A stretch of DNA of 64,000 nt. Source: Ignavibacteriota bacterium (lineage in GTDB: Bacteria; Bacteroidota; Ignavibacteria; UBA10030). The position numbers were made by a program, and so were the translations under genes. The number at the start of each line of letters is the position of its first letter. Position 1 is the first letter of the stretch. The notes under the pieces are model-generated. The model was not told where the DNA came from and did not search any database. It worked only from the letters and a program-made list of their open reading frames with translations. Location of the stretch: contig CAWHXW010000001.1 of the NCBI GenBank assembly GCA_963833465.1, positions 24,972 to 88,971 on the forward strand. Reading direction: 5' to 3'. Shown piece by piece: positions 1,233 through 38,537 of this stretch.

Positions 1233-3251
1233 TCAGAACTGAACCTCTACCTCCATATTCACAAAACTCTGGCTGTTTCCATTGATTTCATCGTTACCTG
1301 TTCCTATTGACTTGACATTTTCCATAACAGTTTGAGCATATTTTGCAGCAATGTACATTTTTGAAAAGATCTGGTACCGCAAGATAAAATACCAGCGCAT
1401 ACCGCGTCCGTATAGAGCTGGATTTGAATACACTCCGGGTAAGTCATCTTCAAATTCATAAATTGACGAATCATAGGAATACGTATCGAAGACAGCAAGC
1501 CGTGCTTGGATTGTCAGTGGAAGAGATAAATTCCATCTAATTTCTTGAGACATTAGCATTCCTTCTTCTTCCGCTTTCAATCCGTTATATTGTACCGTTA
1601 TCCATTCGATCCTGCTTGATAAACGTAATGATTGAGATGAAGTGAATTCACTTGTAAGTCTATAATTTTGTTGAACACGAGAAAATGTCTGTTGAACCAA
1701 TCTGCCGTATAAATCATTCTCATAAGTTGCTGACGGCGAGTCTTTCCTTTTATAACGAAACGTGATTTCATATTGCTCAGTCGGTTTACATTCGGCAAGC
1801 ATAAGGAAATCGTTGCCATGCGACGGAGCCGGCACCAAGTACATCGGCTGAGGATGTTGAAACTGATCGTAATATGTTGATAACTGCAGACATGGAATCA
1901 GTTGTGTTCGAATTCCAGCATATACGCCGTTTTCATTTTGCACCTGTCCGCTTGATTCACCAAAAGCATTTCCGTGAATACTTTGAAATGCTGATGGATA
2001 ATCTCTTGCTACAATTGTCAAGGCAAGTGATGCTGTCGGTTCATAAACAACTCCTGTAATTGCAGCAAGCGCATTTGCGCGGTCGAGGGCACATTCTGAA
2101 AACACATCTACATTTTTATTAGTGAATGAAACATCCATTCCCCGCATCCATAATTCAGAAGCACTTTCGCCGTTTTTACCTGTAAGAATTAAAGGATTAA
2201 CAAATTGAGTGCGATAACAAGTACCTCCGATTTTCAATCCGTCTAAAATATATGTAAATGCACGGCATCCGATTAGTTTTTCCCGCGAAGAGTTTTTATT
2301 GCGCTGTTCGCTTGCTGTACGAAATAATCCGCTTTTATCGATAGACGATATATAACCGAGTGAATCTATTGTCGCATTAATTGCTTTATTGGAATAAAAT
2401 ATTTGAATCTGCATATTGTCTAATCCAATGGATGTGCTGATGCCTCGGAAAAAAGAATTTTCATTGGACAAAAGGTACGGGTGAATTCCGCAGCCATTTT
2501 TCCTCACAGGTGTAATGACATCGCTTCCTTTCCCGAATGCGGATTCAGTCCAAAAAATTAATCCTTCTGCATCTTCCATTTGATAATCCCCAATTATGCA
2601 ATGCGTTGCAAGCGACGGAATGGAAAAGCTGGCATAATAAGTCAAGAAATTTGCGAGACCTCGTTCACCGGGGTCTTTCTTAGTCAACACGCCGGCTTTT
2701 ATATCAGATACCGAAGATGATGAAGACGAATTTAAATTTTCAAGCGAGAGGCAAAACCGATTGAGGATTTTTTCCGGCGAGCCAGGATACGCGCCATTGA
2801 TAAATCCCTGCCGCTCTTCAATTTCTGTTGATGTTCTGCTGAGAAAAAAGGCATAGACGTTTGCCGTTTTCTTCATCCTTCCAATTTTCACAAACCTGCG
2901 AATGAATGAAAACAATTCCGGTGTTATTCCCTCAATTTCTAAAAGTTCATTTACAGAAGTAAATCGTTTATGTTTGCGTCTTTCGACAATCCGAGAAGAA
3001 ATGAGATTTGATATCGCCGGAATTCTATGCAGTTCTTCTGCTGAAGCCGTATTAAGATTAAGTGGATTATCTTCAAGCTGAGTCATTTCTTCAGCGAGAA
3101 TAGAATTCTCATCAGTTTGAATGGCACTCTCTAAAAATTTCTCCCATTGATTATCTTCCCAGAAATCCGAAGTATCTGCTGTTGATCGCTCCTGCGCAAT
3201 TGCAATAGATGCAACGGCAGCACAAAATAAGATAAACAAAAAAGGACGCAT
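1233..3251 (-). CDS. outer-membrane beta-barrel protein with N-terminal ComEA-like helix-hairpin-helix domain
   Basis: 672 aa. Signal peptide MRPFLFILFCAAVASIAIAQ. The motif NLNTASAEELHRIPAISNLISSRIVERRK...FTSVNELLEIEGITPELF is an HhH DNA-binding motif. A long segment of alternating hydrophobic residues ends in a C-terminal Phe (…VEVQF), typical of OM barrels. Confidence 0.6.
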   Translation of the reverse strand: MRPFLFILFCAAVASIAIAQERSTADTSDFWEDNQWEKFLESAIQTDENSILAEEMTQLEDNPLNLNTASAEELHRIPAISNLISSRIVERRKHKRFTSVNELLEIEGITPELFSFIRRFVKIGRMKKTANVYAFFLSRTSTEIEERQGFINGAYPGSPEKILNRFCLSLENLNSSSSSSVSDIKAGVLTKKDPGERGLANFLTYYASFSIPSLATHCIIGDYQMEDAEGLIFWTESAFGKGSDVITPVRKNGCGIHPYLLSNENSFFRGISTSIGLDNMQIQIFYSNKAINATIDSLGYISSIDKSGLFRTASEQRNKNSSREKLIGCRAFTYILDGLKIGGTCYRTQFVNPLILTGKNGESASELWMRGMDVSFTNKNVDVFSECALDRANALAAITGVVYEPTASLALTIVARDYPSAFQSIHGNAFGESSGQVQNENGVYAGIRTQLIPCLQLSTYYDQFQHPQPMYLVPAPSHGNDFLMLAECKPTEQYEITFRYKRKDSPSATYENDLYGRLVQQTFSRVQQNYRLTSEFTSSQSLRLSSRIEWITVQYNGLKAEEEGMLMSQEIRWNLSLPLTIQARLAVFDTYSYDSSIYEFEDDLPGVYSNPALYGRGMRWYFILRYQIFSKMYIAAKYAQTVMENVKSIGTGNDEINGNSQSFVNMEVEVQF

Positions 3252-3253
3252 AG

Positions 3254-4120
3254 TTATTTACCAAGCTTGAAAGAAAGTTCAATCTGATGAGTCCAGCCAA
3301 GATCAGGATGGCTGTATCCTGCATATCCAAATTCAAAAAATGAATATCTGGCAGCAATTCCTAAGGCATACTTGTCTGGATTATTTGCGACCCCTGCACG
3401 AATTGCAATAACATCGAAAACAATTTGCTCAATACCCATTTTTATGTTTGCAGGAAAACGAATATCTTTTTCCATTTCTATTGAAATTTGAATACCGTGT
3501 AATTGCGACCAGCAAGCTCCCAAGTTAAATACTTGCGGGAGCTTTTCACCTGTTCTTCCAAGAGTTGCATCTGTAACGTTGTGAACGCAAAAGCCGATAT
3601 CTACTCTTTCCAACACATGTGCAATTAATCCTCCATCTGTAATAAAACTGCCGGCGGTACCGTACCGAGCAATATCAAGCCGATAATATTGGCAGCTTAA
3701 TCCAGCTGAAATATTTCCATTGGCCTCTTTTGCAAGCGCCAAGCCAAATTCTGATTCTGAATATAAATCGAAACCGAATTTTTCTGCTTTAATTCCAATT
3801 GTTGCAAAAGGAAGCGGCGCTGCTATTGCAAGCGCAGTTGTTTTCAATTCTTGCAATCCAAATTGTTCTGGAACGGTAAATGCGGAGCATTGAAAAGCAG
3901 TTACATTGGTAAGACCCCCTGGATTATAGTTGATTGCCCAGCAATTATCAGACACAGCAACGAAAGCATTTGCCATTCCAATTGCCTTTGTGCCCAGCCC
4001 ATTATTTTCCATTGTAAAAAGGTGAGGGTGATAGATTGACAAGCAAATTATTATTGAACAACCTAACCTTTTTACTTGCTGAGGCAGTAGAATTTGGGTA
4101 TATTTTTCTAAAATAAACAT
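3254..4120 (-). CDS. putative outer-membrane beta-barrel protein (start uncertain; possible internal start near 4012)
   Basis: 288-aa ORF with amphipathic beta-strand pattern. It lies 2 bp downstream of the HhH-OMP gene. The ORF's 5' end overlaps the divergent gene at 4119, so the true start is probably an internal Met. Confidence 0.45.
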   Translation of the reverse strand: MFILEKYTQILLPQQVKRLGCSIIICLSIYHPHLFTMENNGLGTKAIGMANAFVAVSDNCWAINYNPGGLTNVTAFQCSAFTVPEQFGLQELKTTALAIAAPLPFATIGIKAEKFGFDLYSESEFGLALAKEANGNISAGLSCQYYRLDIARYGTAGSFITDGGLIAHVLERVDIGFCVHNVTDATLGRTGEKLPQVFNLGACWSQLHGIQISIEMEKDIRFPANIKMGIEQIVFDVIAIRAGVANNPDKYALGIAARYSFFEFGYAGYSHPDLGWTHQIELSFKLGK

Positions 4121-5054: not shown

Positions 5055-7169
5055 TTATTCCTGCAGTAATTGAGTTGAATTGATCGTATCTCCAATTTGA
5101 AGACGATCAATAACTTCCATTCCCTTTACTACTTTTGCAAATATAGTATAGCGTCCGTCAAGTTGTGGTGTTGAAATATGCGTAATGAAAAACTGGCTTC
5201 CCTCCGTATCTTTTCCTGCACTTGCCATCCCACAGCTTCCTCGCTCGTAATTCACATCTGATATTTCCGTGCGCATTGTATATCCAGGTCCTCCCCAGCC
5301 ATCGCCGCGCGGATCACCGCCTTGAACTACAAAATCCGGCACAACACGGTGAAAGTACAAACCGTTGTAAAATCCTTTTTTGATTAATTTCACAAAATTC
5401 AACACCGTGAATGGTGATTGTTCTTTCATCAATTCAATTATAAATTCACCACGATTAGTTGCAATGCTAACTTGCTGATTCGGTTTAATATTCTCTAAAA
5501 GTTCCCAGTCATCTTCAGTTTTACTTTTAATTATTTGCCGAGGCAATTTACTTGAATAATCCTTGCCTGTAATTCTATGCAAAGATGCTGCAGCTTCATT
5601 GGCAATTGATCGTTCTGATTCGAACAATTCTTTTTCTAAAAACGCAACAGAGCGCACATTATTTATATTTCCTAATGTTTCAATAATGGACTGCTTCGCT
5701 TCTAAATCATCGTTAAGATTCATTTCCCCAAATGCCGAGATAAATTCATCAACAATATTGTCAGTAAGCCCGGCATTTCTAAAGTTATTAAATACTATCG
5801 TATCGGCAAAGAGATTAGCAACAATAGTGGTGATACCTATATCATTTTTGGCAAGTGCATTTCTTGCTTCCTTAAAAATATTATTAATCAATAATGTGCT
5901 TTCGCTTGAATCAAACCCAAGATTTTTAATGACTATCGGATTGAGTATCTGTTTAATAAAATCCCAAGCCGCCATTGCAACACGAGTCGATTTATGATTA
6001 AGATTGTTATAAAGAATATTGAGATGCTCTTTAGTTGTCTGCTGCGCTATTCCTTCCAGGAGTTTTGCTTTTAATCGTGGAGTGACTTGATGATCGTTAA
6101 TCCAAATATAAAATATCTCAAGTTCCTTCGGAAAATGTTTTCCAAGCGCAACAAGGGCTTCTCCACGTACAGCTTCATTTTCAGTATTATCATTTGCAAT
6201 AGCACGCAGCACCGATCGCATAGAATCTATTAGGTGTGATTGATCGGCGACCAGAGGCGGCGAGGCGCTAAACGCCTGTAACGCTGCAATTCTAATATGA
6301 TTATTCTTAGCCGTGAGATACCCAATATATTTCAACAGTGACTCATTGCTTATTGCTGAAAAGGATGCACGCGCGCGAATAATTTGCACCCACACATGCC
6401 AATCATTTAAATTCATTTCTGTTTTTTCAAGTGTGTCTAAAATTTCTCGCGAATCTTCGGACTTCGATCTTCCAAGCAACGTTGCCAAATGCATTCGAAT
6501 ATTCGAATTATAATTTTCAGCCAAAGAAATTAATTCTTCTTTATGCTTTGAAATTTCGAGATCAATTAATCCATTTGGTGCCGACCGCCAAAGTGCAAAA
6601 AGTGCGGCTGAGCATTCTTCCTGCGATTTGCTGCCGGCATACTCAAAACATTTCCAAATGGACCGTTCCGTTTTAATTTGACGAATTGCAAATCGGGCAA
6701 TGCACATCGAAAATTCTTTTGGCGAAAAAATATTTGGCTCCCGTTCGTTGATATTAAGAAGTGAATCCAAATATTTTTGAGAACCGCACTTTCCTATTGC
6801 CTCTAATATTCTTGCAATGACATTTGTATCCTTTTCAGTTGAACTAGCTGAAAGCAATTCATCAACCGCTTTCTCTGTTTTAATTTGCCCTAATGCAAGT
6901 GCCGATGCCGCACGAACATTCTTATCATTATCCTTTAATGAGATCGCAAGCGGTTCTACCGTTGAAGAATCTTGTAGGTTTGCAAGAGCAATAGCGGCTC
7001 GGTATCGAAGTTGAACATTCTGATTTTTAAGGAAGGATATTAGTTTCCCATTGCCTAATGAACGCTGATCCTGCAGTTGAAGGATTTCCCGTTCTCCCGG
7101 CGAAACAGGCTGTGCGTATTGAAGCGAACAAGAACATATGACAAGAATGATTAAAACTATTGTTTTCAC
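5055..7169 (-). CDS. periplasmic HEAT-repeat protein fused to a cyclophilin-type peptidyl-prolyl cis-trans isomerase domain
   Basis: 704 aa. Signal peptide MKTIVLIILVICSCSLQYAQ. The N-terminal roughly 500 aa are repetitive alpha-helical repeats (…VRYRAAIALANLQD…, …NVRAASALALGQIK…). The C-terminal segment …HRVVPDFVVQGGDPRGDGWGGPGYTMRTE…GMASAGKDTEGSQFFITH… is a cyclophilin signature. Confidence 0.8.
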   Translation of the reverse strand: MKTIVLIILVICSCSLQYAQPVSPGEREILQLQDQRSLGNGKLISFLKNQNVQLRYRAAIALANLQDSSTVEPLAISLKDNDKNVRAASALALGQIKTEKAVDELLSASSTEKDTNVIARILEAIGKCGSQKYLDSLLNINEREPNIFSPKEFSMCIARFAIRQIKTERSIWKCFEYAGSKSQEECSAALFALWRSAPNGLIDLEISKHKEELISLAENYNSNIRMHLATLLGRSKSEDSREILDTLEKTEMNLNDWHVWVQIIRARASFSAISNESLLKYIGYLTAKNNHIRIAALQAFSASPPLVADQSHLIDSMRSVLRAIANDNTENEAVRGEALVALGKHFPKELEIFYIWINDHQVTPRLKAKLLEGIAQQTTKEHLNILYNNLNHKSTRVAMAAWDFIKQILNPIVIKNLGFDSSESTLLINNIFKEARNALAKNDIGITTIVANLFADTIVFNNFRNAGLTDNIVDEFISAFGEMNLNDDLEAKQSIIETLGNINNVRSVAFLEKELFESERSIANEAAASLHRITGKDYSSKLPRQIIKSKTEDDWELLENIKPNQQVSIATNRGEFIIELMKEQSPFTVLNFVKLIKKGFYNGLYFHRVVPDFVVQGGDPRGDGWGGPGYTMRTEISDVNYERGSCGMASAGKDTEGSQFFITHISTPQLDGRYTIFAKVVKGMEVIDRLQIGDTINSTQLLQE

Positions 7170-7228
7170 AACTTCTTACCCCTTATTTAGCATACATCTT
7201 ACAAATTGAAATCATTTGCAGATTGCTT

Positions 7229-8056
7229 TTACATCGTTTTATCTTTTTCTAATAAATTAAGATTGAACAACCGAATCGTATTCTTTGTTGTAACACAAGC
7301 GACTTCTTCCTCAGAAATATCAAGTACTTCCGCTATCTTCCGACCTATCAATATTAAGTTCGCCGGTTCATTTCTTTTTCCACGCAACGGAACTGGCGTC
7401 ATATATGGAGAATCCGTTTCGAGTAAAATATTTTCGATTCCGACTTGCTTTATCACTTCCAAACTGTCTGATTTTTTAAACGTAACAATACCAGGATATG
7501 AAATGAAAAATCCAAGACCGCGCACAAAAGCAGCTTGCTCTGCGGTTCCCTGAAAACAATGAAATACTCCGCGCATCTGTTTTTTACTGCTTTCTTTCCA
7601 ATTTGGGTTGGCTTTCACAATCTTCTCTGCAATATAAAAAGAATCTTCAATCGATTCGCGCATATGTAAAACAACCGGCAGGTTCCTTTGTACAGCAATC
7701 TCCATTTGTTTTATAAAATATTTGCGCTGCAACTCACCTGGCGAAAAATCATAATGATAATCCAATCCTATTTCACCGACAGCAGCTACTTTGGGATGCT
7801 CACATAGCTTTTCGATTTCCGCTATATCTTGGCCGCCAGCTTTTAATGTCTCGTGCGGATGGATGCCTACACATGCAAAAATATTATCATTTTGCTCTGC
7901 AAGCAATACTGCTTCCCTGCTTGACTTCAAATCAGTTCCCGGAACAATTATGATATCTATTCCCGCTTCTTTTGCACGCAATAAAACTTCCGCCAGATCA
8001 TTTGCATAATCCTTAAAAAATAGATGAGCATGAGAATCAATGTAACTTGGCATCAT
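7229..8056 (-). CDS. tatD: TatD-family metal-dependent hydrolase/DNase
   Basis: MMPSYIDSHAHL... N-terminus and a TIM-barrel hydrolase motif pattern. The ORF as called extends to 8122, but the canonical TatD start is MPSYIDSHAH. Confidence 0.85.
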   Translation of the reverse strand: MMPSYIDSHAHLFFKDYANDLAEVLLRAKEAGIDIIIVPGTDLKSSREAVLLAEQNDNIFACVGIHPHETLKAGGQDIAEIEKLCEHPKVAAVGEIGLDYHYDFSPGELQRKYFIKQMEIAVQRNLPVVLHMRESIEDSFYIAEKIVKANPNWKESSKKQMRGVFHCFQGTAEQAAFVRGLGFFISYPGIVTFKKSDSLEVIKQVGIENILLETDSPYMTPVPLRGKRNEPANLILIGRKIAEVLDISEEEVACVTTKNTIRLFNLNLLEKDKTM

Positions 8057-8276
8057 AGTTTGCATCCGCCAGGCAGCTATTGGTAAAATAATACATTTAT
8101 ATTTTAATTTATTCAATATCATTCTTTAAATCTATAAATTGTTTAAGAATTGGAATTCTTAGCTCTCTTACGTATATTTTATATAATTAAGCTTAAATGA
8201 TTATAAATTATGATTAGATTAGCGATTGGCTGATAAACCTAATAGTTCAACGGCTTAGAGGTTTGATTAATAATAA

Positions 8277-9014
8277 ATGGCCAATTATCAAATACTAGAT
8301 CGGCATGTTTATGAAAAGAAATATGTGCATTCGCTTTTTGATTCCATTGCGCATAGGTACGATTTTATTAATCATATACTAAGTTCCGGTATTGATATTA
8401 TTTGGCGGCGAAGAGCCATTCGGCTTCTTCAACAATTTCAACCAAAACAAATTCTTGATGTCGCCACAGGCACTGCCGACTTTGCTATTGAAGCCGTTCA
8501 GTTAAATCCTGAACAAATTATCGGTATTGACATTTCACAAAAAATGCTGGAAATAGGCCGTAATAAAATTCAAGCTCGAAAATTTGAGCATTTCATCACA
8601 CTAGAACCCGGCGAAGCAGAACATCTGCGTTTCGAATCAGGTTCATTTGATTTAGTGATGGCTGCATTCGGTGTAAGAAATTTTACAAATCTTGAACTTG
8701 GACTGAAAGAATTCTATCGTGTTTTGCACGCAGGAGGCAATGCATTAATTTTAGAATTTTCTAAGCCGAAACAATTTCCGATAAAACAAATTTTTCGTTT
8801 TTATTCACGGTACTTTCTCCCTTTTCTTGGAGGAGTCATTTCAAACAATCGTGCGGCTTATAAATATCTCCAAAGCACAATAGCGGAATTCCCTGATGGC
8901 GAAGAATTTTGCGCTATACTGCGTTCTGCAGGATTCGCAGAGGTGACATATTTACCGCAGACATTCGGCATCACTTCTATCTATATTGCAAAGAAAGAAA
9001 TGTTTTCAAATTGA
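8277..9014 (+). CDS. ubiE: demethylmenaquinone / ubiquinone biosynthesis C-methyltransferase
   Basis: 245 aa. Motif I ILDVATGTADFA, DISQKMLEIG, and the SAM-dependent MTase fold. Confidence 0.85.
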   Translation: MANYQILDRHVYEKKYVHSLFDSIAHRYDFINHILSSGIDIIWRRRAIRLLQQFQPKQILDVATGTADFAIEAVQLNPEQIIGIDISQKMLEIGRNKIQARKFEHFITLEPGEAEHLRFESGSFDLVMAAFGVRNFTNLELGLKEFYRVLHAGGNALILEFSKPKQFPIKQIFRFYSRYFLPFLGGVISNNRAAYKYLQSTIAEFPDGEEFCAILRSAGFAEVTYLPQTFGITSIYIAKKEMFSN

Positions 9015-9934
9015 TCGGTCTTTATAAAATATTTGATGCTCACGTTCACTTTTATTCAAATTCTTTTTTCAAGTTTTTGGTAAAGCAAAAATTTAATCGT
9101 GCAGACATCAATACCGAGCTTCGGAATCTTGCTTCGAAAGGACACATCGAAATCCCCGGTGAAGATCCTGTGCAGCTTGCGAAACGCTGGATAGATATTA
9201 TCGATAAATGGAAGTTAGAGCGGTTGATGCTTTTTAGCAGTATTCCCGGAGATGAGGACTCGATCGTTAAAGCAGTGAAGGCATTCCCGGCACGCTTTTC
9301 GGGAATGTTCACAGTCGATCCCAACTCAAATTTATTGATGGAGAATGCCGCAAAGCGAATGCAGGAAGATAATTTGAAAGGAGTGCTGCTCTACCCCTCT
9401 CTTTATCAAATTAATGTCAACGATGAGTGGCTGTATCCTCTTTACAACCTTATTCAGGAATGCAACGGAATTATCCTCATACAATTCGGCAAGTTAGTTG
9501 TACGCCCGCGTGAATACGCCGGAATTCCTACGATAACTAACGACGAGTTCGCTAACCCAAAAGATTTGATACCGGTAGCAAAAAAATTTACAGGTATCAA
9601 ATTCATAATCCCGAATTTTGGCGCTGGGATGTTTGAAGAAACTTTGGAACTCGGCAAAGAATGTCCAAATGTTTATGTCGATACTGCCGGCTCAAATTCC
9701 TGGATTACCGAACATCCTACTAAGCCGGATATGCGTCGTGTGTTTCAGAAATTTCTAGAGGTTTATACAGCGAAAAGGATAATATTTGGATCGGATTCCG
9801 GTCTGCTGCCGCGCGGCTACCGATATGACATTGTGGACAACCAATTGAAATTAGTGCAGGAAATGCGTTTGCCTATGGTTGATATTAAAAATATTTTCTA
9901 CGAAAATATGTCCGGTTTGATGAACAATACGTAG
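9011..9934 (+). CDS. amidohydrolase-2 family (TIM-barrel metal-dependent hydrolase)
   Basis: Begins …IFDAHVHFY… (metal-binding HxH). The ORF track starts it at 8909, inside ubiE. The likely start is a TTG overlapping the ubiE stop (TTGA). Confidence 0.6.
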   Translation: MIGLYKIFDAHVHFYSNSFFKFLVKQKFNRADINTELRNLASKGHIEIPGEDPVQLAKRWIDIIDKWKLERLMLFSSIPGDEDSIVKAVKAFPARFSGMFTVDPNSNLLMENAAKRMQEDNLKGVLLYPSLYQINVNDEWLYPLYNLIQECNGIILIQFGKLVVRPREYAGIPTITNDEFANPKDLIPVAKKFTGIKFIIPNFGAGMFEETLELGKECPNVYVDTAGSNSWITEHPTKPDMRRVFQKFLEVYTAKRIIFGSDSGLLPRGYRYDIVDNQLKLVQEMRLPMVDIKNIFYENMSGLMNNT

Positions 9935-10023
9935 GATTTTCTTTAGATTTCTACCATACTCATAAAATGAAATCACATTTAACTGCCGGCAATCTGATTC
10001 GTTCAATCAGATTGAACAATTAG

Positions 10024-10572
10024 TCAGATTACGTTTTGTCTTTTTAACAAATTCTCTGATGAAATTAATTTGATTTCTCCGTTTGTAGGCATCATATTTT
10101 CCCAAAGCCAATTATGATGTTGAATTACTTTTTCAGCATTTAGATGAAAGCGATCCGCTGTTGTATGGCAATCTGTAATAACGAAAATATTATAATCCTT
10201 GTTTAAAGCAAAATGAACTGTTGCATCGACACAAATATCTGTTGCGCAACCTGTAATGAACAATTCCTTTATTCCATATTTTTTTAAAACAATCTCCAAA
10301 TCCGTTTTATAGAATGAATCGTTTGCCGTTTTACTTACGATAATATCATTCGCATCCTGAATTAACGTTGATAAAATATTCCAATCAGATGTACCTGGAA
10401 GAAAAGCATTTTCCTTTGTTCCATCATGCTGGATAAAGATTACTTTATCTCCATTTTGTCTGAAGTAATTTGACAATAAATTGATTTTCTGAATTATAGC
10501 TTCAGCATTAAAACGCGGAGTTTCAGGTTTAAAACATCCCACCTGCATGTCAATTATTAATAGTGCTTTCAT
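10024..10572 (-). CDS. isochorismatase-family cysteine hydrolase
   Basis: 182 aa. MKALLIIDMQ..., catalytic Cys in …ITGCATDICV…, isochorismatase fold. Confidence 0.8.
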   Translation of the reverse strand: MKALLIIDMQVGCFKPETPRFNAEAIIQKINLLSNYFRQNGDKVIFIQHDGTKENAFLPGTSDWNILSTLIQDANDIIVSKTANDSFYKTDLEIVLKKYGIKELFITGCATDICVDATVHFALNKDYNIFVITDCHTTADRFHLNAEKVIQHHNWLWENMMPTNGEIKLISSENLLKRQNVI

Positions 10573-10767
10573 TTCTCACTCTTTGATGGAATTTAATGTA
10601 CCATCTAACTAACAGTTGTTAAGCTGCCGCACTGATTACTTTTAAATTGCATTAATTGAAAAATGCTTATACTGAAAAAGTGAAAAACAAAAACTAAAAT
10701 CTTTAAAAGTAATCTTGATTGCACGCGCGCTCATTGTGTCAGAATATTGCACTGGCAAGATGCAACC

Positions 10768-11178
10768 TTATCTATCAGTATCCTTGTTATAGTTGGCGGG
10801 ATAACGATAGGCACAAGTGAATAGAATAAGTAATATTAGTTGCATCAACCAAGATGGTACAGCTCGCTCAATAGTAATAGTTCCAGATATAACAGCGCAT
10901 ATCTCTGTCAAGACAAAACCTAAAATTACTATTATTGTCAATATCGCTGCATATTTTCTTTCAACCGGCTTTTGATATGCCCATATTAAAAATATTGTCC
11001 ATCCCAACATAAGCGAGGCACCACACCCCATCGCAAATTGATACGCTCCGTTGAATTCTGTAATACCCCAGAATATATTTGCAAGTTTTGGAAAGAGCAT
11101 AGGTAATATTGCCAGTGCATCGGTGATTGCTCCCGCTAAAAACGCTATACGCAATATTTTTAATTGATTGACGCGCAT
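10768..11178 (-). CDS. small integral membrane protein, hypothetical
   Basis: 136 aa with four predicted TM helices. Confidence 0.45.
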   Translation of the reverse strand: MRVNQLKILRIAFLAGAITDALAILPMLFPKLANIFWGITEFNGAYQFAMGCGASLMLGWTIFLIWAYQKPVERKYAAILTIIVILGFVLTEICAVISGTITIERAVPSWLMQLILLILFTCAYRYPANYNKDTDR

Positions 11179-11285
11179 AAATTCTCCGCATTATTAATAT
11201 TTATTGCATCCACTAACTACAAAAAAGAAAGATATAGTTTCCGTCTCTGCATAAAATCTATTCTAGAGCAAGTTAAAATAATCAT

Positions 11286-12494
11286 TTATCGCAATACCGG
11301 TACTACATTTTCCTGCATTGGTAATCCGGTAACGATCACTTCCCGATCCTTCGAGATATAGACATCAATCTCACTGCGAATCCCAAACTTATCGCGCAGA
11401 TAAATTCCAGGCTCGATAGAGAAGGATGTCTGAGGGATAATAGCGCGCTCATCGCGAGTCTCAAGATTATCCATATTAGCACCGTTCCCATGTACTTCCT
11501 CTCCTATCGAATGTCCTGTCCGATGAACAAAATATTCGCCGTAGCTATGCTGCGTGATAAAATTGCGCGCGGCATCATCAACTTCATATCCATGAATAAT
11601 CTTGCCTGTCTTTATTGATAAGCGAATAAAATCTAACGCCGCATCCCGTGCACCTCTAACAATTTGAAATATCTTTTCAAATTCATCCGGCACTTTTTCT
11701 CCAAGAAATCCCATCCATGTGATATCGGCATAAACTGATCGCGGTTTATCTTTCTTCGCCCATAAATCTAACAATACATAATCGCCTTTATGCAGCGGAG
11801 AATTAATTTCTTTAGTCGGTTCATAATGCGGATTTGCACTGTTTGCATTCACAGAGCAATTCGGGTCGCTCGATGTTTCTAATCCTCGTTTCTTGAATTC
11901 CGATAACATGAACTGCTGAACATCATATTCTGTAATCGCGATATTGGATTTCATATTTTTGCTTATAAAATTAAATGTTTCATCGACAATCTGGCGTAAA
12001 TGTACCGCACTTTCAATATTGTCCTTTAATTGTTCATCATCCCATCTTGCTTCAAAGTACTGGATAAGATTAGCTGACGATACAATTTCGACTCCCGTGC
12101 CTCGAACAAGTTCAACTGTGCCTGCATCAACGGTCGAGATATACGGAATTGCACATCGAGGGGAATATTCCATCGCAACTTGTTTTGCATCGGAGAGAAG
12201 TTCTTTAAGTCCTTCTTCCAGCGAACACCAACTGAGATAAACTTTTTTATCACCAGGGAGAGCATCTAAATTCCATTCTTCAATCCTATGAACTAATTTA
12301 CGCGGTTCACCTTTAGCTGGAATATAATAGAAATATCTTCGAGTGAACATAATATGTTTGGGAAGCGATAGAAGGCGAGTAGCAAAAATATTCGATTCAC
12401 GAAAGTTATATAAAAGCCAGCCGTCTATTTGCTCTGCCTGTAATACTTTCTGGATATCGTAAATCAACACGGAGTAATCTTTCACTGCGCACAT
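11286..12494 (-). CDS. M24-family metallopeptidase (Xaa-Pro aminopeptidase/prolidase-like)
   Basis: 402 aa. C-terminal pita-bread motifs …VHRTGHSIGEEVHG… and …SIEPGIY…. Confidence 0.8.
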   Translation of the reverse strand: MCAVKDYSVLIYDIQKVLQAEQIDGWLLYNFRESNIFATRLLSLPKHIMFTRRYFYYIPAKGEPRKLVHRIEEWNLDALPGDKKVYLSWCSLEEGLKELLSDAKQVAMEYSPRCAIPYISTVDAGTVELVRGTGVEIVSSANLIQYFEARWDDEQLKDNIESAVHLRQIVDETFNFISKNMKSNIAITEYDVQQFMLSEFKKRGLETSSDPNCSVNANSANPHYEPTKEINSPLHKGDYVLLDLWAKKDKPRSVYADITWMGFLGEKVPDEFEKIFQIVRGARDAALDFIRLSIKTGKIIHGYEVDDAARNFITQHSYGEYFVHRTGHSIGEEVHGNGANMDNLETRDERAIIPQTSFSIEPGIYLRDKFGIRSEIDVYISKDREVIVTGLPMQENVVPVLR

Positions 12495-12553: not shown

Positions 12554-12587
12554 AAAAAATCCTGTCCCAGATTATCAGGACAGGATT
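12554..12587 (-). terminator. rho-independent terminator ending the Ddl2-Ddl1-GNAT-kamA operon
   Basis: Perfect 10-bp inverted repeat aatcctgtcc/ggacaggatt with a 10-nt loop. An A6 run on the plus strand gives a T6 run after the hairpin on the minus strand. Confidence 0.55.
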
Positions 12588-12605
12588 AATGTACGATTCA
12601 GTCGT

Positions 12606-13796
12606 TTACTTTCCAACTTGTTCAACTGGAACTTGTTCCATAGAAGCTTTTTCTTCAATCCTTTCATCTATATCTGCAACAATCACCGGTTTTCGTCTTC
12701 CATTCTGACGCTTCCTTAAATATTTATGCTCCACCGGATGTTGTTCAATTAGCTCTTCCTCTACATCGGGATAAGTATAAATTTCATATTTATAATTGCG
12801 GAGAATAATATCCTTCCCATTCCTTCCAAGAACATATTGCGGAAGCAGCGGAATTTTTCCTCCGCCGCCAGGTGCATCAATGACATAATACGGAATTGCA
12901 AGACCCGAAGTATGTCCGCGGAGTTTATCCATAATTTCCAACCCAACACGAACTGGAGTCCTAAAATGATTCGTGCCTTTCGTCAGATCAGCTTGGTAAA
13001 TATAATATGGACGTACGCGCATTTTAAGCAGCTTACGATGTAATTCCAGCATTACATCCGGATCATCATTCACGCCCTTCATCAACACAGATTGATTGCC
13101 GACAGGTATTCCGACATCAGCCAGCATATTGCATGCGCGTTCAGCTTCCGGTGTGCACTCCCATGGATGATTAAAATGCGTATTAATGTAAAGCGGATGA
13201 TACTTCCTCAACATTTTACATAACTTTACAGTGATGCGCTGCGGCAGTACGCAGGGCATCTTTGTTCCAAGGCGAATAATCTCTACGTGTGGAATTTCCC
13301 GCAATCCTGCCAGAACGCGTTCTAAGGCATAATCTGTCACCATTAATGGATCGCCGCCGGAGATAACAACATCCCGTATCTCAGGATGAGAGTTAATATA
13401 TTCCAATCCTCTTTGAATGTACTTTGCATTGATTTTCGTAGAATCGCTGACTTTTCTTTTTCTAGTACAGAACCGGCAGTACATAGAGCACTGACTGGTG
13501 ATAAGGAATAGTGCTCTATCAGGATATCGATGTGTGATACTTGGAACCGGGCTATCGGCATCTTCATTAAGAGGATCGACGGGTGCTTTATCATCCTGGA
13601 GTTCGATTGCATCAGGAATACACTGCCGCCAGATAGGATCGTTCGGATAACGAATTAAACTTAGGTAGTACGGATTAATTCTAATATGAAAAAATTTATC
13701 GAGCTTCTCTGCAGCTTCTTTACTAAATCCAAAACGCTCAACTAAATCTTTTGCGCTGTCAACGCTCTGTCTAAGCATTTCTTGCCAGAGTTCCAT
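12606..13796 (-). CDS. kamA: lysine 2,3-aminomutase (KamA-family radical SAM enzyme)
   Basis: 396 aa. CSMYCRFCTRKR radical-SAM cluster motif, GGDPL, and a C-terminal PLP/Zn region typical of LAM. Confidence 0.85.
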   Translation of the reverse strand: MELWQEMLRQSVDSAKDLVERFGFSKEAAEKLDKFFHIRINPYYLSLIRYPNDPIWRQCIPDAIELQDDKAPVDPLNEDADSPVPSITHRYPDRALFLITSQCSMYCRFCTRKRKVSDSTKINAKYIQRGLEYINSHPEIRDVVISGGDPLMVTDYALERVLAGLREIPHVEIIRLGTKMPCVLPQRITVKLCKMLRKYHPLYINTHFNHPWECTPEAERACNMLADVGIPVGNQSVLMKGVNDDPDVMLELHRKLLKMRVRPYYIYQADLTKGTNHFRTPVRVGLEIMDKLRGHTSGLAIPYYVIDAPGGGGKIPLLPQYVLGRNGKDIILRNYKYEIYTYPDVEEELIEQHPVEHKYLRKRQNGRRKPVIVADIDERIEEKASMEQVPVEQVGK

Positions 13797-13814
13797 AAAT
13801 AATACTATTGCTCC

Positions 13815-14288
13815 TTAAAAGTATTTAGAATAGATGACGAGGTCGTCATCTTGTGCATAATAATCTTTGATACGAGCCGCTTCTATATATTGATGCCGAA
13901 GATAAAACCGCCGCGTCGGTTCATACTTTGGTTGTGATGATGTTTCAACAACGAGTAATTTACCGCCCAATGTTTTTACATGTTCTTCACAATGTTCAAG
14001 TAATTCATGTCCAATTCGTTTTTTATGTACACGCGGATGCACGGCAATCCAGTACAAATCAAATGTTTTTTGCGTCATCGGTGTAGGACCCGCGCAATAA
14101 TATCCTTGTATGGTACCGAAATCATCCACATAAGAAAAAAGAAAATAATCTTTTTGTTCTTTATCGTTTGCAGTAATGTCCATCAGTTCTATCGCGACAT
14201 CAACTTCCTCTTTACGAAACACTCCGGTCGCCCTTACAATTTCTGCAAGCGGTTCGATATCTTCTTTTTCAAACTTTCTAATCGGCAT
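13815..14288 (-). CDS. GNAT-family N-acetyltransferase (candidate beta-lysine acetyltransferase)
   Basis: Start taken at MPIRKFEKEDIEPL. GNAT motif A …HPRVHKKRIGHELLEH…. Translationally coupled to kamA (18-bp gap) and to the upstream ATP-grasp gene. Confidence 0.7.
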   Translation of the reverse strand: MPIRKFEKEDIEPLAEIVRATGVFRKEEVDVAIELMDITANDKEQKDYFLFSYVDDFGTIQGYYCAGPTPMTQKTFDLYWIAVHPRVHKKRIGHELLEHCEEHVKTLGGKLLVVETSSQPKYEPTRRFYLRHQYIEAARIKDYYAQDDDLVIYSKYF

Positions 14289-14292
14289 ATCG

Positions 14293-15390
14293 CTACCGGC
14301 GCGACCGCTCAAAAGCGGTCTCCACAATTTTTAAAATCATATCGTCAAATGTCATTCCGGCTGTGCGGGCTGAACGAGCAAAACCTGCATCGCATGATAT
14401 ATCCGGATTCGGATTCACTTCTAAAACGTACGGTGTATTAGAAGCATCAAGCCGGATATCTACACGTGCATAATCTCTAATTTCCATTAATTGATACGCT
14501 TGCAATGCGACTTTCCTTATGCGTTGTTCTACATCAGTATCAAGCTGTGCCGGACATGTTCCAACAGTTCCTGCGTATTCCGGTGTCCCTTCGACCCACT
14601 TCGCATTGTAAGTAACAATCTTCGGATATCCGGACGGTAGTTTTGAAAAATCAATTTCAGAAATCGGCAATATTGTCGGCTGCTCGTTGCCAATGATAGC
14701 GACATTCAATTCCCTTCCTTCAATATATTCTTCAACTAACGCCGGTTCGTTGAAGGTTTTCAAAATATAGGCAACTTGTTTTTGAAGCGAAGGTATATCA
14801 TAAACAACAGACGAATTTTGTATGCCAATACTTGCATCTTCATGTATTGGTTTGACAATAAATGGAAAATGCAAATGTGCCTCGTCAATATGGCAGGCTT
14901 CAACATTTGCAGAAATTATATGCTGTGCAGTCGGTATTCCATATGCCCGAAGAATATCCTTTGCGCGGACTTTATTCAAGCATGTTCCTAATGCAAGCGT
15001 TGCAGCACCTGTATAGGGAATATTCATCAATTCATAAATGCCTGCAATGTGCATCTCGTGAAGTGATTCTCCCATTAGCGATTCACATAAATTGAAAATA
15101 AGATCAGGTTTTTGTATCTCGACAAAATTTATTAGGCGCTTGATATCACCATCAATATTAAATAGTGAAGTACGATATCCTTTATTTTGAAGCGCTTTTT
15201 CTACTTGTTCGCGCTCTTCGATTACGCCGACTTCCGACATATCAACTAAATGACTTGGTACATTAGCGACTATTTCTGAATGAGACGCAAGTGCCCCGAT
15301 TTGTCCTTCCGCAGAAATAAACATTCGTCCTTTTTCTGTTGTAATTGTAGGTTCGTTGAAAATAATTGCGATATGTGCTATTTTCGTCAT
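14293..15390 (-). CDS. D-Ala-D-Ala-ligase-family ATP-grasp ligase (L-amino-acid-ligase-like), paralog 1
   Basis: 365 aa. …MNIPYTGAATLALGTCLNKVRAKDIL… Ddl central motif and ATP-grasp C-terminal segment …EVNPNPD…. It lacks the canonical Ddl N-terminal GGxSxExxVS motif. Confidence 0.75.
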   Translation of the reverse strand: MTKIAHIAIIFNEPTITTEKGRMFISAEGQIGALASHSEIVANVPSHLVDMSEVGVIEEREQVEKALQNKGYRTSLFNIDGDIKRLINFVEIQKPDLIFNLCESLMGESLHEMHIAGIYELMNIPYTGAATLALGTCLNKVRAKDILRAYGIPTAQHIISANVEACHIDEAHLHFPFIVKPIHEDASIGIQNSSVVYDIPSLQKQVAYILKTFNEPALVEEYIEGRELNVAIIGNEQPTILPISEIDFSKLPSGYPKIVTYNAKWVEGTPEYAGTVGTCPAQLDTDVEQRIRKVALQAYQLMEIRDYARVDIRLDASNTPYVLEVNPNPDISCDAGFARSARTAGMTFDDMILKIVETAFERSRR

Positions 15391-15396
15391 TTATTT

Positions 15397-16500
15397 TCAA
15401 TTCTTAAGCAAATTATATCGCTTAATTCCTTCATCTAAAACAGCATTAATCAAAGTATTATAATCCATACCTGCCGATCTGGCGGCTTGTGGAAAACAAG
15501 AATGTTCTTCAGGATTTGGCAATATTCCAGGTAAAGGATTTAATTCCAACACATTTGGATGCCCATGTTCATCTAATCTTATGTCAATTCGACACCAGTC
15601 TCGGCAGCGTAATATTCGATATGCATTGCGGCAAACATCTTCAATTTCTTTTTGAAGTTTTGAAGGAATTTTAGCCGGACATTCATGCACATCGATGGGA
15701 TTTTCTATTGTGTCCCAAATCCATTTCGCTTCATACGAATAAACAGGATTTACATCATCCGGAAGTGAATCGAAGCGGATTTCTACAATCGGCAATATAC
15801 GAATATCGGAGTCGTTGCCAAGAATTGCTACGGTGAACTCCCGTCCAGTCAAAAATTTTTCTACTAACGCAGGTTCTTCATATTCTCCGATTATTCTTTT
15901 AACTTGACGATGGAGTTCTTCATCGGTGCGAACAACCGATGCATTGTAAATGCCTTTACTCGATCCTTCATGTAATGGTTTCACTATGCAAGGTAAAGAA
16001 AAATCTAATTTCGATAATTGATGAAGAGAATTTATGACAGCAAACGGCGGAGTCAGAATTTTATGATGTGATAATATTTCTTTCGCTCTTGATTTATCAA
16101 GACAAATTCCCAGCGTGAGCGAATCAGAACCTGTATAAGGAATGCCGAGCATTTCAAGAATTGCTGGAATTTGTGCTTCACGTGATGGACCGCGCAAACC
16201 TTCAGCAATATTAAAAACAATGTCGGGTTTCACAGCTAGAAGAGCCGGATATGCTTCCTCGGTTGCTTCGATAAGAGTAACGTCGTGATACAATTCGAGT
16301 GCTGTCTTTACGGCGAGAATAGTTTCTTCCTTATCCCATTCTGCGTATATGTCTGCTTTCGCCTGATGAAGTTCAGTTTTTTCTGCGACATTTTTTTTTC
16401 TTCCAGGAAATTTATCCGGATCATCGTCGCCAGTTAAAACTTCTTCTACACTTTCTTTCTTCACGTTGTAGACGAGAGCTACGTTCAGTCGCTGTAGCAA
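15397..16500 (-). CDS. D-Ala-D-Ala-ligase-family ATP-grasp ligase, paralog 2
   Basis: 367 aa. …MLGIPYTGSDSLTLGICLDKSRAKEIL…, …ELNPLPG…. Lies 6 bp upstream of paralog 1. Confidence 0.75.
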   Translation of the reverse strand: MLQRLNVALVYNVKKESVEEVLTGDDDPDKFPGRKKNVAEKTELHQAKADIYAEWDKEETILAVKTALELYHDVTLIEATEEAYPALLAVKPDIVFNIAEGLRGPSREAQIPAILEMLGIPYTGSDSLTLGICLDKSRAKEILSHHKILTPPFAVINSLHQLSKLDFSLPCIVKPLHEGSSKGIYNASVVRTDEELHRQVKRIIGEYEEPALVEKFLTGREFTVAILGNDSDIRILPIVEIRFDSLPDDVNPVYSYEAKWIWDTIENPIDVHECPAKIPSKLQKEIEDVCRNAYRILRCRDWCRIDIRLDEHGHPNVLELNPLPGILPNPEEHSCFPQAARSAGMDYNTLINAVLDEGIKRYNLLKN

Positions 16501-16748
16501 GCGGTAAGATCAACCTTTCAATTGTTGAACTAATCTATTTTGCTGTTTCAATGAACAACAAATGTTGATACTAATATAATCCTTTATATCTTGTTGTCAA
16601 GTTTTTTCGCTCTTTTTGACCATGAAATGTCGGCAAGAGATAAGGTCTACGAAAAGACAAATTCCTGATTTACGATTTTGAATTTGAGATTTGAAGATCG
16701 AAGGATGCAAATAATTTCGTCAGTAGTTTTTGATTTCTGTTTTTAACC

Positions 16749-34088: not shown

Positions 34089-35438
34089 TCATCGATCTAA
34101 TTTTGTTTCGAGATGAAACCTATGCAGTATCTGGCTTAAATCCTCAATACCTTTTGAGCACTGTAAAAGTATTCCATTGTGAATCATTAAAATATTTGCC
34201 CTGCCTCTCAAGCAATATGCTGAAGACATTACATCGCTGTAAGCGCCTGTATCAAGAACACCTAAAACATCACCTTCTTTAATTTCAGGAATTTCTCTCG
34301 GCTCATCTTGAGTAAATGTATCTCCTGTTTCGCATACATTACCATCTATAGAATAAACCTTTAGCGGACCATTTGGATTTGATATATTAATTATTTCATG
34401 ATATGCATGATACAGTTTGGGACGTATCAATGTTCCCATACTTGCATCAGTATAGGCATGAAGAACGCCATTCTTCTCTTCAACGGTATTCACCTTTGTC
34501 AATAGAATTGTTGAATCGCCGACTAAGCTCCTTCCGGGTTCAACGATTAGTTTATTTATCTTAACGCCGCTCCTGTTGAGCTCGTCATTGATTATCTTAG
34601 CATAAGCATTGAAAGGAAAAGATTCTTGATTTTCTCTATATCTTATTCCGGGTCCACCGCCAACATCGAGATTTAAGTTATTAAAATCGTAATTTTCTAA
34701 TTCATTCATTACATTAAGTGTATTCTGCAATGCAATTCTAAAACTATCAACGTCATTACCAAGCCACCCTGAACCTATGTGTATGTGCAAGGTGTCAGGA
34801 TAAAAATCATATTCGCGCGCAGCTATAAAAGTATTAATTATTTTATCCTGTTCGATTCCAAACTTTATCGGAACACCTCCCTCATTTATTGAGCCGGCAG
34901 TTATAACATCAGGATTATGGCCTGCGCCAACATTTGGATTTAATCTTATTGAAAGACGTAAGCCCTTTATATTCCATTCGTCACGATGCTCTCCAAGTTT
35001 TTTTAACTGCGAATTGGAATCAATGTTGATTTTATAATTTCCAAATTTAACAAGTATTTCGAGATCATCTTTGGAAACGGATGTTCCGGTGAACATAATT
35101 TTATTTCGAGGAATTCCACGTTCCTCTGCAAGAATTGCTTCGTTGGGTGAAACTGCATCTGCACCTAAACCAAGCATTGCAATAAGATCAATAACTTGAG
35201 GACAATAATTTGCTTTTATTGCATAATTAATATCAATAACACCTGAATAGTTTTTTCCAAAAGCTTCTTTAATCAATCTCGCCTTATCTTCAATTCTTTT
35301 TCCGTGAGTAAGATATATAGGAGTAGGATTGGATTTCGCCAACTCATCTAAATTGTAATCCCTGAACGAACGAGACCAGACTTTATTATTTCTAACATCA
35401 AAACCTTTAAAAAACCACCAGTATTGCTTATCATTCAT
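34089..35438 (-). CDS. PLP-dependent Orn/DAP/Arg decarboxylase family 2 (diaminopimelate decarboxylase-like)
   Basis: 449 aa. …CETGDTF…, …GAYSDVMSSAYCLRGRANILMI… at the C-terminus. Has an N-terminal extension relative to LysA. Confidence 0.65.
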   Translation of the reverse strand: MNDKQYWWFFKGFDVRNNKVWSRSFRDYNLDELAKSNPTPIYLTHGKRIEDKARLIKEAFGKNYSGVIDINYAIKANYCPQVIDLIAMLGLGADAVSPNEAILAEERGIPRNKIMFTGTSVSKDDLEILVKFGNYKINIDSNSQLKKLGEHRDEWNIKGLRLSIRLNPNVGAGHNPDVITAGSINEGGVPIKFGIEQDKIINTFIAAREYDFYPDTLHIHIGSGWLGNDVDSFRIALQNTLNVMNELENYDFNNLNLDVGGGPGIRYRENQESFPFNAYAKIINDELNRSGVKINKLIVEPGRSLVGDSTILLTKVNTVEEKNGVLHAYTDASMGTLIRPKLYHAYHEIINISNPNGPLKVYSIDGNVCETGDTFTQDEPREIPEIKEGDVLGVLDTGAYSDVMSSAYCLRGRANILMIHNGILLQCSKGIEDLSQILHRFHLETKLDR

Positions 35439-38520: not shown

Positions 38521-38537
38521 TCACGGAGAATGGCAGC

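Follow-up and report, generated by a model that had tools for sequence, protein, structure and literature searches.

A conserved gene cluster of Ignavibacteriota with KamA, two Ddl-fold ATP-grasp ligases and a GNAT: a candidate pathway to acetylated beta-lysine amides

Aminomutases of the KamA family supply beta-lysine to two described systems. In AblA/AblB (KamA/YodP), found in methanogens and some bacteria, a lysine 2,3-aminomutase (LAM) and a GNAT acetyltransferase share one operon, the known arrangement for N-epsilon-acetyl-beta-lysine. In the EpmB/EpmA system, the aminomutase feeds beta-lysine to an ATP-dependent ligase, a LysRS paralogue that acts on a protein, the elongation factor EF-P. 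A comparative paper of 2010 on EF-P and LAM names ablB and efp as the only neighbours of LAM genes. Here we describe a cluster in which KamA is accompanied by a small GNAT N-acetyltransferase and by two ATP-grasp ligases, AG1 and AG2, that resemble D-alanine-D-alanine ligase (Ddl). The four genes lie in a stretch of 64,000 nucleotides, hereafter the window, from an Ignavibacteriota bacterium (assembly GCA_963833465.1, contig CAWHXW010000001.1, positions 24,972 to 88,971 of the forward strand).

Acetyltransferases and ATP-grasp ligases are also combined in the synthesis of N-acetylated dipeptide solutes. N-acetylglutaminylglutamine amide (NAGGN) is made by Ngg, a bifunctional GNAT and ATP-grasp protein, together with AsnO, and mammals synthesize N-acetylaspartylglutamate (NAAG). 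Two ATP-grasp ligases act in series in the hsv pathway of Pseudomonas syringae, where HsvC and then HsvB add Val and Phe to amidinospermidine to form phevamine (PMC6187163). We found no description of the present cluster in the searchable full-text literature. On balance, we consider it probable that the cluster is a small-molecule pathway building an amide-linked, acetylated compound that contains beta-lysine.

The four predicted enzymes

The family assignments made in a first-pass annotation of the window were reproduced by our profile search, with Pfam matches to LAM_C and Radical_SAM for KamA, to Acetyltransf_1 for the GNAT and to Dala_Dala_lig_C for both ligases. KamA exceeded the cut-off of the model for KamA-family radical SAM (S-adenosylmethionine) aminomutases (TIGR00238; 302.6 bits, cut-off 199.2). 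It scored just under the cut-off of the AblA equivalog TIGR03820 (464.3 bits, cut-off 525.4) and far short of those for EpmB (230.1 bits, cut-off 369.3), glutamate aminomutase and arginine aminomutase. The protein is 54% identical to the LAM of Clostridium subterminale (2A5H; E 2.5e-122) and retains the equivalents of C125, C129 and C132 (CxxxCxxC), R134, D293, D330 and K337. According to the literature on that structure, D293 and D330 bind the epsilon-ammonium group of lysine, R134 binds its carboxylate and K337 is the lysine for pyridoxal phosphate (PLP). The full set of lysine, PLP and Fe-S residues was found in eight of nine cluster-linked KamA proteins of other lineages as well. Because KamA of the window keeps all of these residues, its predicted conversion of L-lysine to beta-lysine (3,6-diaminohexanoate), also proposed in the first-pass annotation, is well supported and is the best-supported step of the pathway.

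In some Ignavibacteria there is another, only distantly related radical SAM protein of the KamA family, whose gene lies a few kb upstream of recG and on the other strand (locus L062, 1867-3255, 462 aa, 27-30% identity to KamA of the window; similar in L056, L063 and L077). A link to EF-P through this gene was considered and rejected, as it encodes a different radical SAM protein and has no efp or epmA alongside.

Both ligases match Dala_Dala_lig_C (AG1, E 9e-38; AG2, E 2e-34) and are about 31-33% identical to Ddl over the region aligned by tblastn. Against PRK01372, their best NCBIfam Ddl model (cut-off 243), AG1 reached 193.5 and AG2 172.8 bits, and they fell still further under the cut-offs of the remaining Ddl and Van models. 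The AlphaFold2 model of AG1 (pLDDT 79.5, pTM 0.81) predicts the three-domain fold of Ddl. When this model was compared with the PDB by Foldseek, all 50 listed matches were Ddl, with TM-scores of 0.79-0.84 (target-normalised) over all three domains at 20-27% identity. At residues 17-52, a 36-residue insertion modelled with low confidence takes the place of the glycine-rich loop of Ddl. For AG2, the assignment to the Ddl fold rests on the Pfam match.

In alignments, AG1 and AG2 retain the equivalents of K97, K144, E180, K215, R255, D257, E270 and N272 of E. coli DdlB, the residues for ATP, Mg and phosphoryl transfer. Since these are kept, both ligases look catalytically competent. The GGxSxE loop of Ddl is absent from both, as had been noticed in the first-pass annotation, and the E15-S150-Y216 triad is altered. 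AG1 has YAEWD and no glycine loop, with an AE[WFY]D motif at the position of E15; S150 and S281 are kept and Y216 is replaced by Trp. AG2 has MSEVG and no conserved motif at E15, with S150 changed to Ala, Y216 to Trp, G276 to Asp and S281 to Ala.

Placement of the two proteins inside bona fide Ddl, together with the lack of another ddl in the genome, had been named at the outset as an outcome that would speak against a separate function. In a distance tree of 29 sequences with two true Ddl as outgroup, the cluster-linked ligases form two sister clades, A (with AG1) and B (with AG2), outside E. coli DdlA and DdlB. In each cluster examined, there is one ligase of type A and one of type B, and no more. 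When the window and all fetched loci were searched for a true ddl, only homologues of AG1 and AG2 came up, and an exact-protein look-up gave no record of AG1 of the window. The scores under the Ddl cut-offs, the separate clades, the fusions to KamA or GNAT and the occurrence on an apparently murein-less archaeal contig (both below) support the prediction that AG1 and AG2 are not bona fide Ddl. In public annotation, ligases of types A and B appear as 'D-alanine-D-alanine ligase' or 'ATP-grasp domain-containing protein'. Thousands of them carry the former label in public metagenomes and can be told apart by their diagnostic motifs, AE[WFY]D/EGSS/N.LPG for type A and E[DH][AG]S/N.NP for type B.

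The GNAT matched Acetyltransf_1 with 36.8 bits (gathering cut-off 20.7, E 5e-9) and reached no curated NCBIfam family, the best being rimI (31.7 bits, cut-off 86.4). No AblB-type model was among its NCBIfam matches, in line with the first-pass remark that it is short (157 aa) and unlike AblB/YodP. Its closest solved structure is 2R7H, a 'putative D-alanine N-acetyltransferase' (E 4.5e-28), which apparently comes from Oleidesulfovibrio alaskensis G20, a source that we assume in part from the origin of its relatives. A near-identical protein (99%) and the closest relatives of 2R7H are from Oleidesulfovibrio/Desulfovibrio; the family reaches Planctomycetota and Desulfobacterales, and no functional study of the 2R7H protein was found in the literature. 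Across clusters, this capping slot is filled by unrelated GNAT families (Acetyltransf_1 type or Acetyltransf_3 type) or by a methyltransferase, or it is empty. In two metagenome-assembled genomes (MAGs) of Ignavibacteriales, it holds an unrelated cysteine-rich open reading frame of about 200 aa (CKDCSFCHDECCAHG...; L019 and L020, about 10750-11390), and in a third it is empty (L064, 10223-10305). Thus, even members of the phylum can do without the acetyltransferase.

Conservation, gene fusions and a sister operon class

A scan for relatives of AG1, with one genome per species, yielded at least 545 loci. Gene order was surveyed in the best 80 of these, from Ignavibacteriota and allied MAGs with AG1 identities of 55-84%. 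The order AG1-AG2-GNAT-KamA was found in 73 of the 80 loci; three are cut by contig ends, three have no GNAT, and one (L068) has neither GNAT nor KamA. The four-gene block is therefore syntenic in related genomes, contrary to one of the outcomes that the first-pass annotation had named as refuting, and it recurs in distant lineages. Identity to the window is 63-93% for KamA, as compared with 37-92% for AG2 or GNAT. The flanks vary among the 80 loci except for recG upstream. In these flanks, we found no gene for a transporter, carrier or regulator, and the cluster is not accompanied by genes for an exporter, a precursor, resistance or a hydrolase. The lack of the first three of these companions makes an antibiotic or signalling role, which had been offered as one option at first, unlikely.

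The search was extended to 1.84 billion protein cluster representatives, among which 1289 families matched at E <= 1e-30. They include fusions in the orders KamA-A (P0131, P0239), A-KamA (P0233), B-GNAT (P0234 and others) and A-B (P0168). Every KamA fusion involves type A and every GNAT fusion type B. One locus consists of adjacent KamA-A and B-GNAT fusion genes with Na+/H+ exchangers alongside (L081), and another has KamA, an A-B fusion and a GNAT (L093). In the complete genome of Desulfovibrio mangrovi (CP104208.1, block at about 3,558,300-3,562,300; L090), KamA, A, B and GNAT are followed directly by a 585-aa fusion of GNAT and Hist_deacetyl domains (9629-11386), and a sigma-54 enhancer-binding protein is encoded upstream of KamA. 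The Hist_deacetyl superfamily includes acetylpolyamine amidohydrolases, and this locus hints at a cycle of acetylation and deacetylation with regulated expression. On a contig with archaeal neighbours (L085), B is divergent from KamA, A and GNAT. Two loci contain A, B and KamA and no GNAT (L087, L089); the FmdB zinc-ribbon protein encoded beside the former was rejected as a carrier, as its tail is Ser/Thr-rich and not acidic and the gene is not recurrent. In a further lineage (L088, 4363-8416; also L094 and L095), KamA, A and B are joined by a PLP decarboxylase of the Orn/DAP/Arg type and by two additional ATP-grasp proteins of 440 and 427 aa that are more distant, so that the product may be longer or decarboxylated. 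One lineage, with about 20 loci, shows the order A, histidine kinase, sigma-54 activator, response regulator, KamA, B.

The module was found in hundreds of bacterial species and on at least one contig that is apparently archaeal. Its conserved core consists of KamA and ligases A and B; the GNAT is frequent but dispensable. Fusions of the 'Rosetta-stone' kind, shared gene order and recurrence in distant lineages together strongly indicate that the four proteins belong to a single pathway, and for the same reasons they are probably in physical contact. We also tried to assign beta-lysine to one of the two ligases, and the evidence conflicts. The KamA-A fusions speak for ligase A, as do additional acidic residues that type A has in site 1. 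For ligase B speak the adjacency of KamA and B in the approximately 20 loci, the altered residues in site 2 of B and the KamA-less type-A ligase of L068, which is 61% identical to AG1 and has the same residues at every active-site position examined.

Tandem fusions of A-type ligases (A-A') form a large related family of about 650-720 aa (e.g. P0124, P0127). In the one context examined (L082, 8001-11432), a Peptidase_S58 gene comes after the fusion gene, and KamA is absent. Peptidase_S58 is the DmpA/BapA family, which includes beta-aminopeptidases, and the pair may represent a separate system of synthesis and degradation.

A metagenome scan with a type-B alignment gave 80 further loci, picked by their similarity to one type-B protein. 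A lies beside B in all 18 of these that have enough flanking sequence; 16 of the 18 contain KamA, two contain homospermidine genes and none contains both. When shorter contigs and L068 are included, the polyamine class comprises at least eight loci; contigs of the KamA-less class include CAZAGD010000146.1, Ga0315288_10002281 and Ga0315314_1000098. Its typical order is DHS-agmatinase-ArgDC-A-B-methyltransferase-GT4-GT4, in which DHS stands for a SpeY-type homologue of deoxyhypusine synthase, ArgDC for a pyruvoyl arginine decarboxylase and GT4 for a glycosyltransferase of that family; the methyltransferase is of the Methyltransf_11 type. No KamA or GNAT gene was found within 9 kb of these operons. 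L098 combines A, a B-GNAT fusion, DHS and ArgDC; between the fusion gene and the DHS and arginine decarboxylase genes sits a bifunctional gene for NTP_transferase and CDP-alcohol phosphatidyltransferase (2618-3955), a pair typical of di-myo-inositol-phosphate (DIP) synthases.

A 2026 paper places SpeY, a bacterial DHS homologue, in an agmatine-dependent route to homospermidine (PMC13625781). The amines of beta-lysine are four carbons apart, which is the 1,4-diamine spacing of putrescine, and we infer that this shared spacing may underlie the alternation of KamA with polyamine genes. Judged by gene content, the invariant module is the A-B ligase pair, and its partner would supply either beta-lysine or putrescine/homospermidine. 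It is a reasonable sub-hypothesis that the ligases acylate a putrescine-like diamine, provided as beta-lysine or as a polyamine. The occurrence of A-B without KamA alongside homospermidine genes points to polyamine-like amine chemistry, an aspect absent from the first-pass annotation.

Locus layout and window context

The features of the locus and the polyamine-class operons are collected in Table 1. The genes had been described as packed with gaps of 6 and 18 bp and one overlap. Both gaps stand, as the AG1/AG2 and GNAT/KamA spacers; AG2 and GNAT are separated by 4 nt (TAG cgat ATG) when the latter begins at ATG, and they overlap with the TTG start only. The strong terminator reported behind the operon was also found. 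It begins 19 nt past the KamA stop codon and has a T-rich tail. Over the region, eight terminator-like matches compare with 6.3 +/- 2.6 expected, which is no enrichment, and the stem behind KamA is by far the longest of the eight.

Table 1. Positions of the cluster genes and signals in the window, and of the polyamine-class operons in their own loci
Feature	Position	Strand	Remarks
AG1, type-A Ddl-fold ATP-grasp ligase	15397-16500	minus	367 aa, TTG start
AG2, type-B Ddl-fold ATP-grasp ligase, AG1 paralogue	14293-15390	minus	365 aa
GNAT N-acetyltransferase, small	13815-14288	minus	157 aa from ATG; 170 aa from TTG at 14327
KamA-family lysine 2,3-aminomutase	12606-13796	minus	396 aa
Sigma-70-type promoter, TTGACA-16 nt-TATATT	16573..16600	minus	consensus scan, 11/12 matches
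5' leader with GTTCATTGA and GAAAGG motifs	16501..16572	minus	aligned related leaders
Intrinsic terminator at operon end	12558..12587	minus	12-bp stem, 6-nt loop, TTTTATTTTA tail
Polyamine-class loci	L068 1772-7229; L151, L155 ~5300-10750; also L139, L148, L158, L164		

The promoter lies about 75 nt upstream of AG1, and CTTGACA-N16/17-TATATT is retained before AG1 in most Ignavibacteriota-type loci. In the window and L001-L021, the conservation of the promoter and the leader of about 75 nt is far above that of the coding sequence, and the recG-AG1 spacer outside them diverges among related genomes. Neither motif of the leader, GTTCATTGA or GAAAGG, varies between the window and 17 aligned related leaders, which were drawn from L001-L021 (AG1 protein identity 61-84%). 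GAAAGG is a probable ribosome-binding site. A riboswitch or leader RNA was considered and dropped, as the leader had no match in Rfam even at E up to 1 and RNAalifold gave no consensus structure for it; an apparent 5' hairpin spotted by eye was not supported. Given these two negative results, the leader may be a site for protein binding or translation control.

The neighbouring genes of the window, among them recG, an M24 peptidase gene, an isochorismatase-family gene and namZ, are unrelated housekeeping genes. The M24 peptidase gene (11286-12494) was rejected as a member of the cluster, as it lies past the terminator and is syntenic in the closest relatives only. The statement that the ligases are not near murein-synthesis genes proved right: no mur or fts genes lie nearby. 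In the recG-AG1 gap, no small open reading frame with a zinc ribbon or acidic tail, as in a LysW-type carrier, was found. The lysine-supply genes named in the first-pass annotation are indeed in the window, as a dapD-like gene (38517-39386) and an Orn/DAP/Arg decarboxylase gene (34089-35438). They are unlinked to the cluster, 18-25 kb away among unrelated genes and outside the conserved block, and were rejected as part of the system. Elsewhere in the window, the seryl-tRNA synthetase gene (40316-41580) seems to be frameshifted. Its main reading frame has an aberrant tail and stops at 41401, and a different frame (41398-41580) carries on into the normal C-terminus, which is probably due to an assembly or sequencing indel and not to a pseudogene.

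Proposed pathway, alternatives and known systems

We propose the following order of steps. KamA, a radical SAM and PLP enzyme, would convert L-lysine to beta-lysine, a step supported by its residues. Ligases A and B would then contribute one amide bond apiece by way of an acyl-phosphate, as their fold, residues and fusions suggest, and the existence of A-B fusions makes it probable that they operate as a physical pair. The GNAT would acetylate a remaining free amine; this is suggested by its non-orthologous replacement in the same slot. The product would most likely be an N-acetylated pseudo-di- or tripeptide, or an aminoacyl conjugate, with beta-lysine. As to its role, our guess is a cytoplasmic protective solute or polyamine-like cation and not a secreted antibiotic. 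The Na+/H+ exchangers of L081, the DIP-synthase-like gene of L098, the polyamine genes and the deacetylase of D. mangrovi hint at stress/solute or polycation biology. A broader proposal, which we offer only tentatively, is that KamA with the A/B pair, with or without the GNAT, is the signature of an unrecognised, widespread class of primary metabolites. Its members would be 1,4-diamines (beta-lysine or putrescine/homospermidine) that are aminoacylated and also N-acetylated or N-methylated, and they would act as a protective solute or replace polyamines in Ignavibacteriota, sulfate reducers, Planctomycetota, ammonia-oxidising archaea and others.

Several points weigh against the proposed pathway. 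Its second to fourth steps we infer from sequence. The GNAT is missing in some lineages (e.g. L087, L089), so acetylation is not essential and this enzyme is dispensable or replaceable. For KamA-less operons such as L068, either KamA lies elsewhere in those genomes or ligase A does not use beta-lysine. The 80 metagenome loci, having been chosen with a single type-B protein, are not a random sample. The tree has a small outgroup, so that the curated cut-offs are the firmer argument against membership in Ddl. The taxonomic labels used here are those of MAGs, and the label Nitrososphaerales for the contig of L085 comes from the MAG label of a member of its 90% cluster and from neighbouring Pfam families. 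Finally, nearly all Ignavibacteriota of freshwater, soil and groundwater have the cluster, and its promoter looks constitutive; a classic, purely salt-induced osmolyte therefore fits poorly.

Other explanations of the cluster were weighed against these data. The A-B pair could be a polymerase or oligomerase that makes a cationic, nitrogen-rich peptide polymer or oligomer from beta-lysine, either alone or together with another amino acid; this would serve as a reserve or polycation, and the GNAT would cap its chain. Iterative action of ATP-grasp enzymes is established for CphA (cyanophycin synthetase) and RimK, and the minimal core of KamA, A and B in some lineages means that lysine may be the sole dedicated input. 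The Peptidase_S58 gene next to the A-A' fusion and the NtrC-type sigma-54 activators that flank or interrupt the cluster in two lineages would also suit such a polymer. We nevertheless judge this unlikely: enzymes of the Ddl clade are known as single-turnover dipeptide ligases and not as polymerisers, the cluster has no primer or membrane component and, in Ignavibacteriota, no accompanying hydrolase, and a capping GNAT or methyltransferase suits a defined small product better. Still less probable in our view is a protein modification, in which beta-lysine would be attached to a lysine or carboxylate of EF-P or of a ribosomal protein by an ATP-grasp alternative to EpmA/EpmB or RimK. KamA is of the full-length LAM type (464 bits for AblA vs 230 bits for EpmB), no gene for efp, a ribosomal protein or a small carrier is conserved beside the cluster, and the FmdB neighbour in L087 has no acidic tail and does not recur. 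Two ligases and an acetyltransferase also exceed what such a modification needs. It would nonetheless share the logic of EF-P beta-lysylation, a KamA-type enzyme with an ATP-dependent ligase, and the cluster is a core, housekeeping-looking feature of the whole phylum. The weak match of the GNAT to RimI points in the same direction, as does the alternative partner of A-B, a homologue of deoxyhypusine synthase, whose family makes the other known lysine extension, that of IF5A. SpeY, however, makes homospermidine and does not modify a protein, according to the 2026 paper (PMC13625781).

The cluster might also be divided into two unrelated halves, with KamA and GNAT as an AblA/AblB-like route to N-epsilon-acetyl-beta-lysine and the ligases as neighbouring cell-wall enzymes for D-Ala-D-Ala or D-Ala-D-X. 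AG1 and AG2 do match Ddl best in Pfam and in the PDB, a LAM beside a GNAT is the known arrangement for acetyl-beta-lysine, and the 64-kb window contains no other ddl. We give this explanation almost no credence, as the fusions of the ligases to KamA or GNAT in other genomes already largely refute it. In addition, both ligases score under all Ddl cut-offs with an altered GGxSxE loop and E15-S150-Y216 triad, they occur on the apparently murein-less archaeal contig, the core of KamA, A and B persists without the GNAT, and the 157-aa GNAT matches no AblB-type family.

If the pathway to an acetylated beta-lysine amide is real, Ignavibacteriota, many other anaerobes and possibly some soil archaea make an undescribed compound derived from beta-lysine. 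The cost of two ATP and a radical SAM step per molecule would imply an important task in the cell, for example in protection against stress, in charge balance or in the manner of polyamines, and the ligases would represent two new specificities within the Ddl fold. Cultured Desulfovibrio species carry the cluster, which makes the proposal directly testable, and a mapped transposon library exists for Oleidesulfovibrio alaskensis G20 (PMC4045070).

Compared with known systems, the cluster resembles AblA/AblB in the combination of a LAM-type aminomutase and a GNAT in one operon and in the substrate residues of KamA. It differs in having four genes instead of two, with two integral ATP-grasp ligases that are elsewhere fused to KamA and GNAT. 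Here, KamA scores under the AblA cut-off, the GNAT is short and of a different family, and it is the GNAT and not the ligases that is dispensable. EpmB/EpmA likewise has a KamA-family aminomutase feeding beta-lysine to an ATP-dependent ligase, but there the ligase is a LysRS paralogue with a protein target and the aminomutase is of the short EpmB type; we found neither EpmA nor efp in the window neighbourhood or the conserved flanks. With DdlA, DdlB and VanA, the ligases share the three-domain fold and the residues for ATP, Mg and phosphoryl transfer, and they are set apart by low identity, scores under the cut-offs, a replaced N-terminal loop, the A and B pairing and a context without murein genes. 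By domain types, NAGGN and NAAG synthesis follow the same logic of acetyltransferase plus ATP-grasp ligase, and the B-GNAT fusions combine the same two domain types; those pathways use Gln/Glu substrates with one ligation and no beta-amino acid. The best mechanistic analogue, likened by its logic, would be phevamine, especially for the sister operons with homospermidine genes: a dedicated first enzyme (the amidinotransferase HsvA) provides a polyamine-type amine for two sequential ATP-grasp ligases. The phevamine system has no aminomutase or acetyltransferase, and its product is a secreted virulence factor of narrow distribution, in contrast to a phylum-wide core cluster. The parts are thus known families and their logic has precedents in an aminomutase feeding a ligase, in paired ATP-grasp ligases and in N-capping, and the product is probably new.

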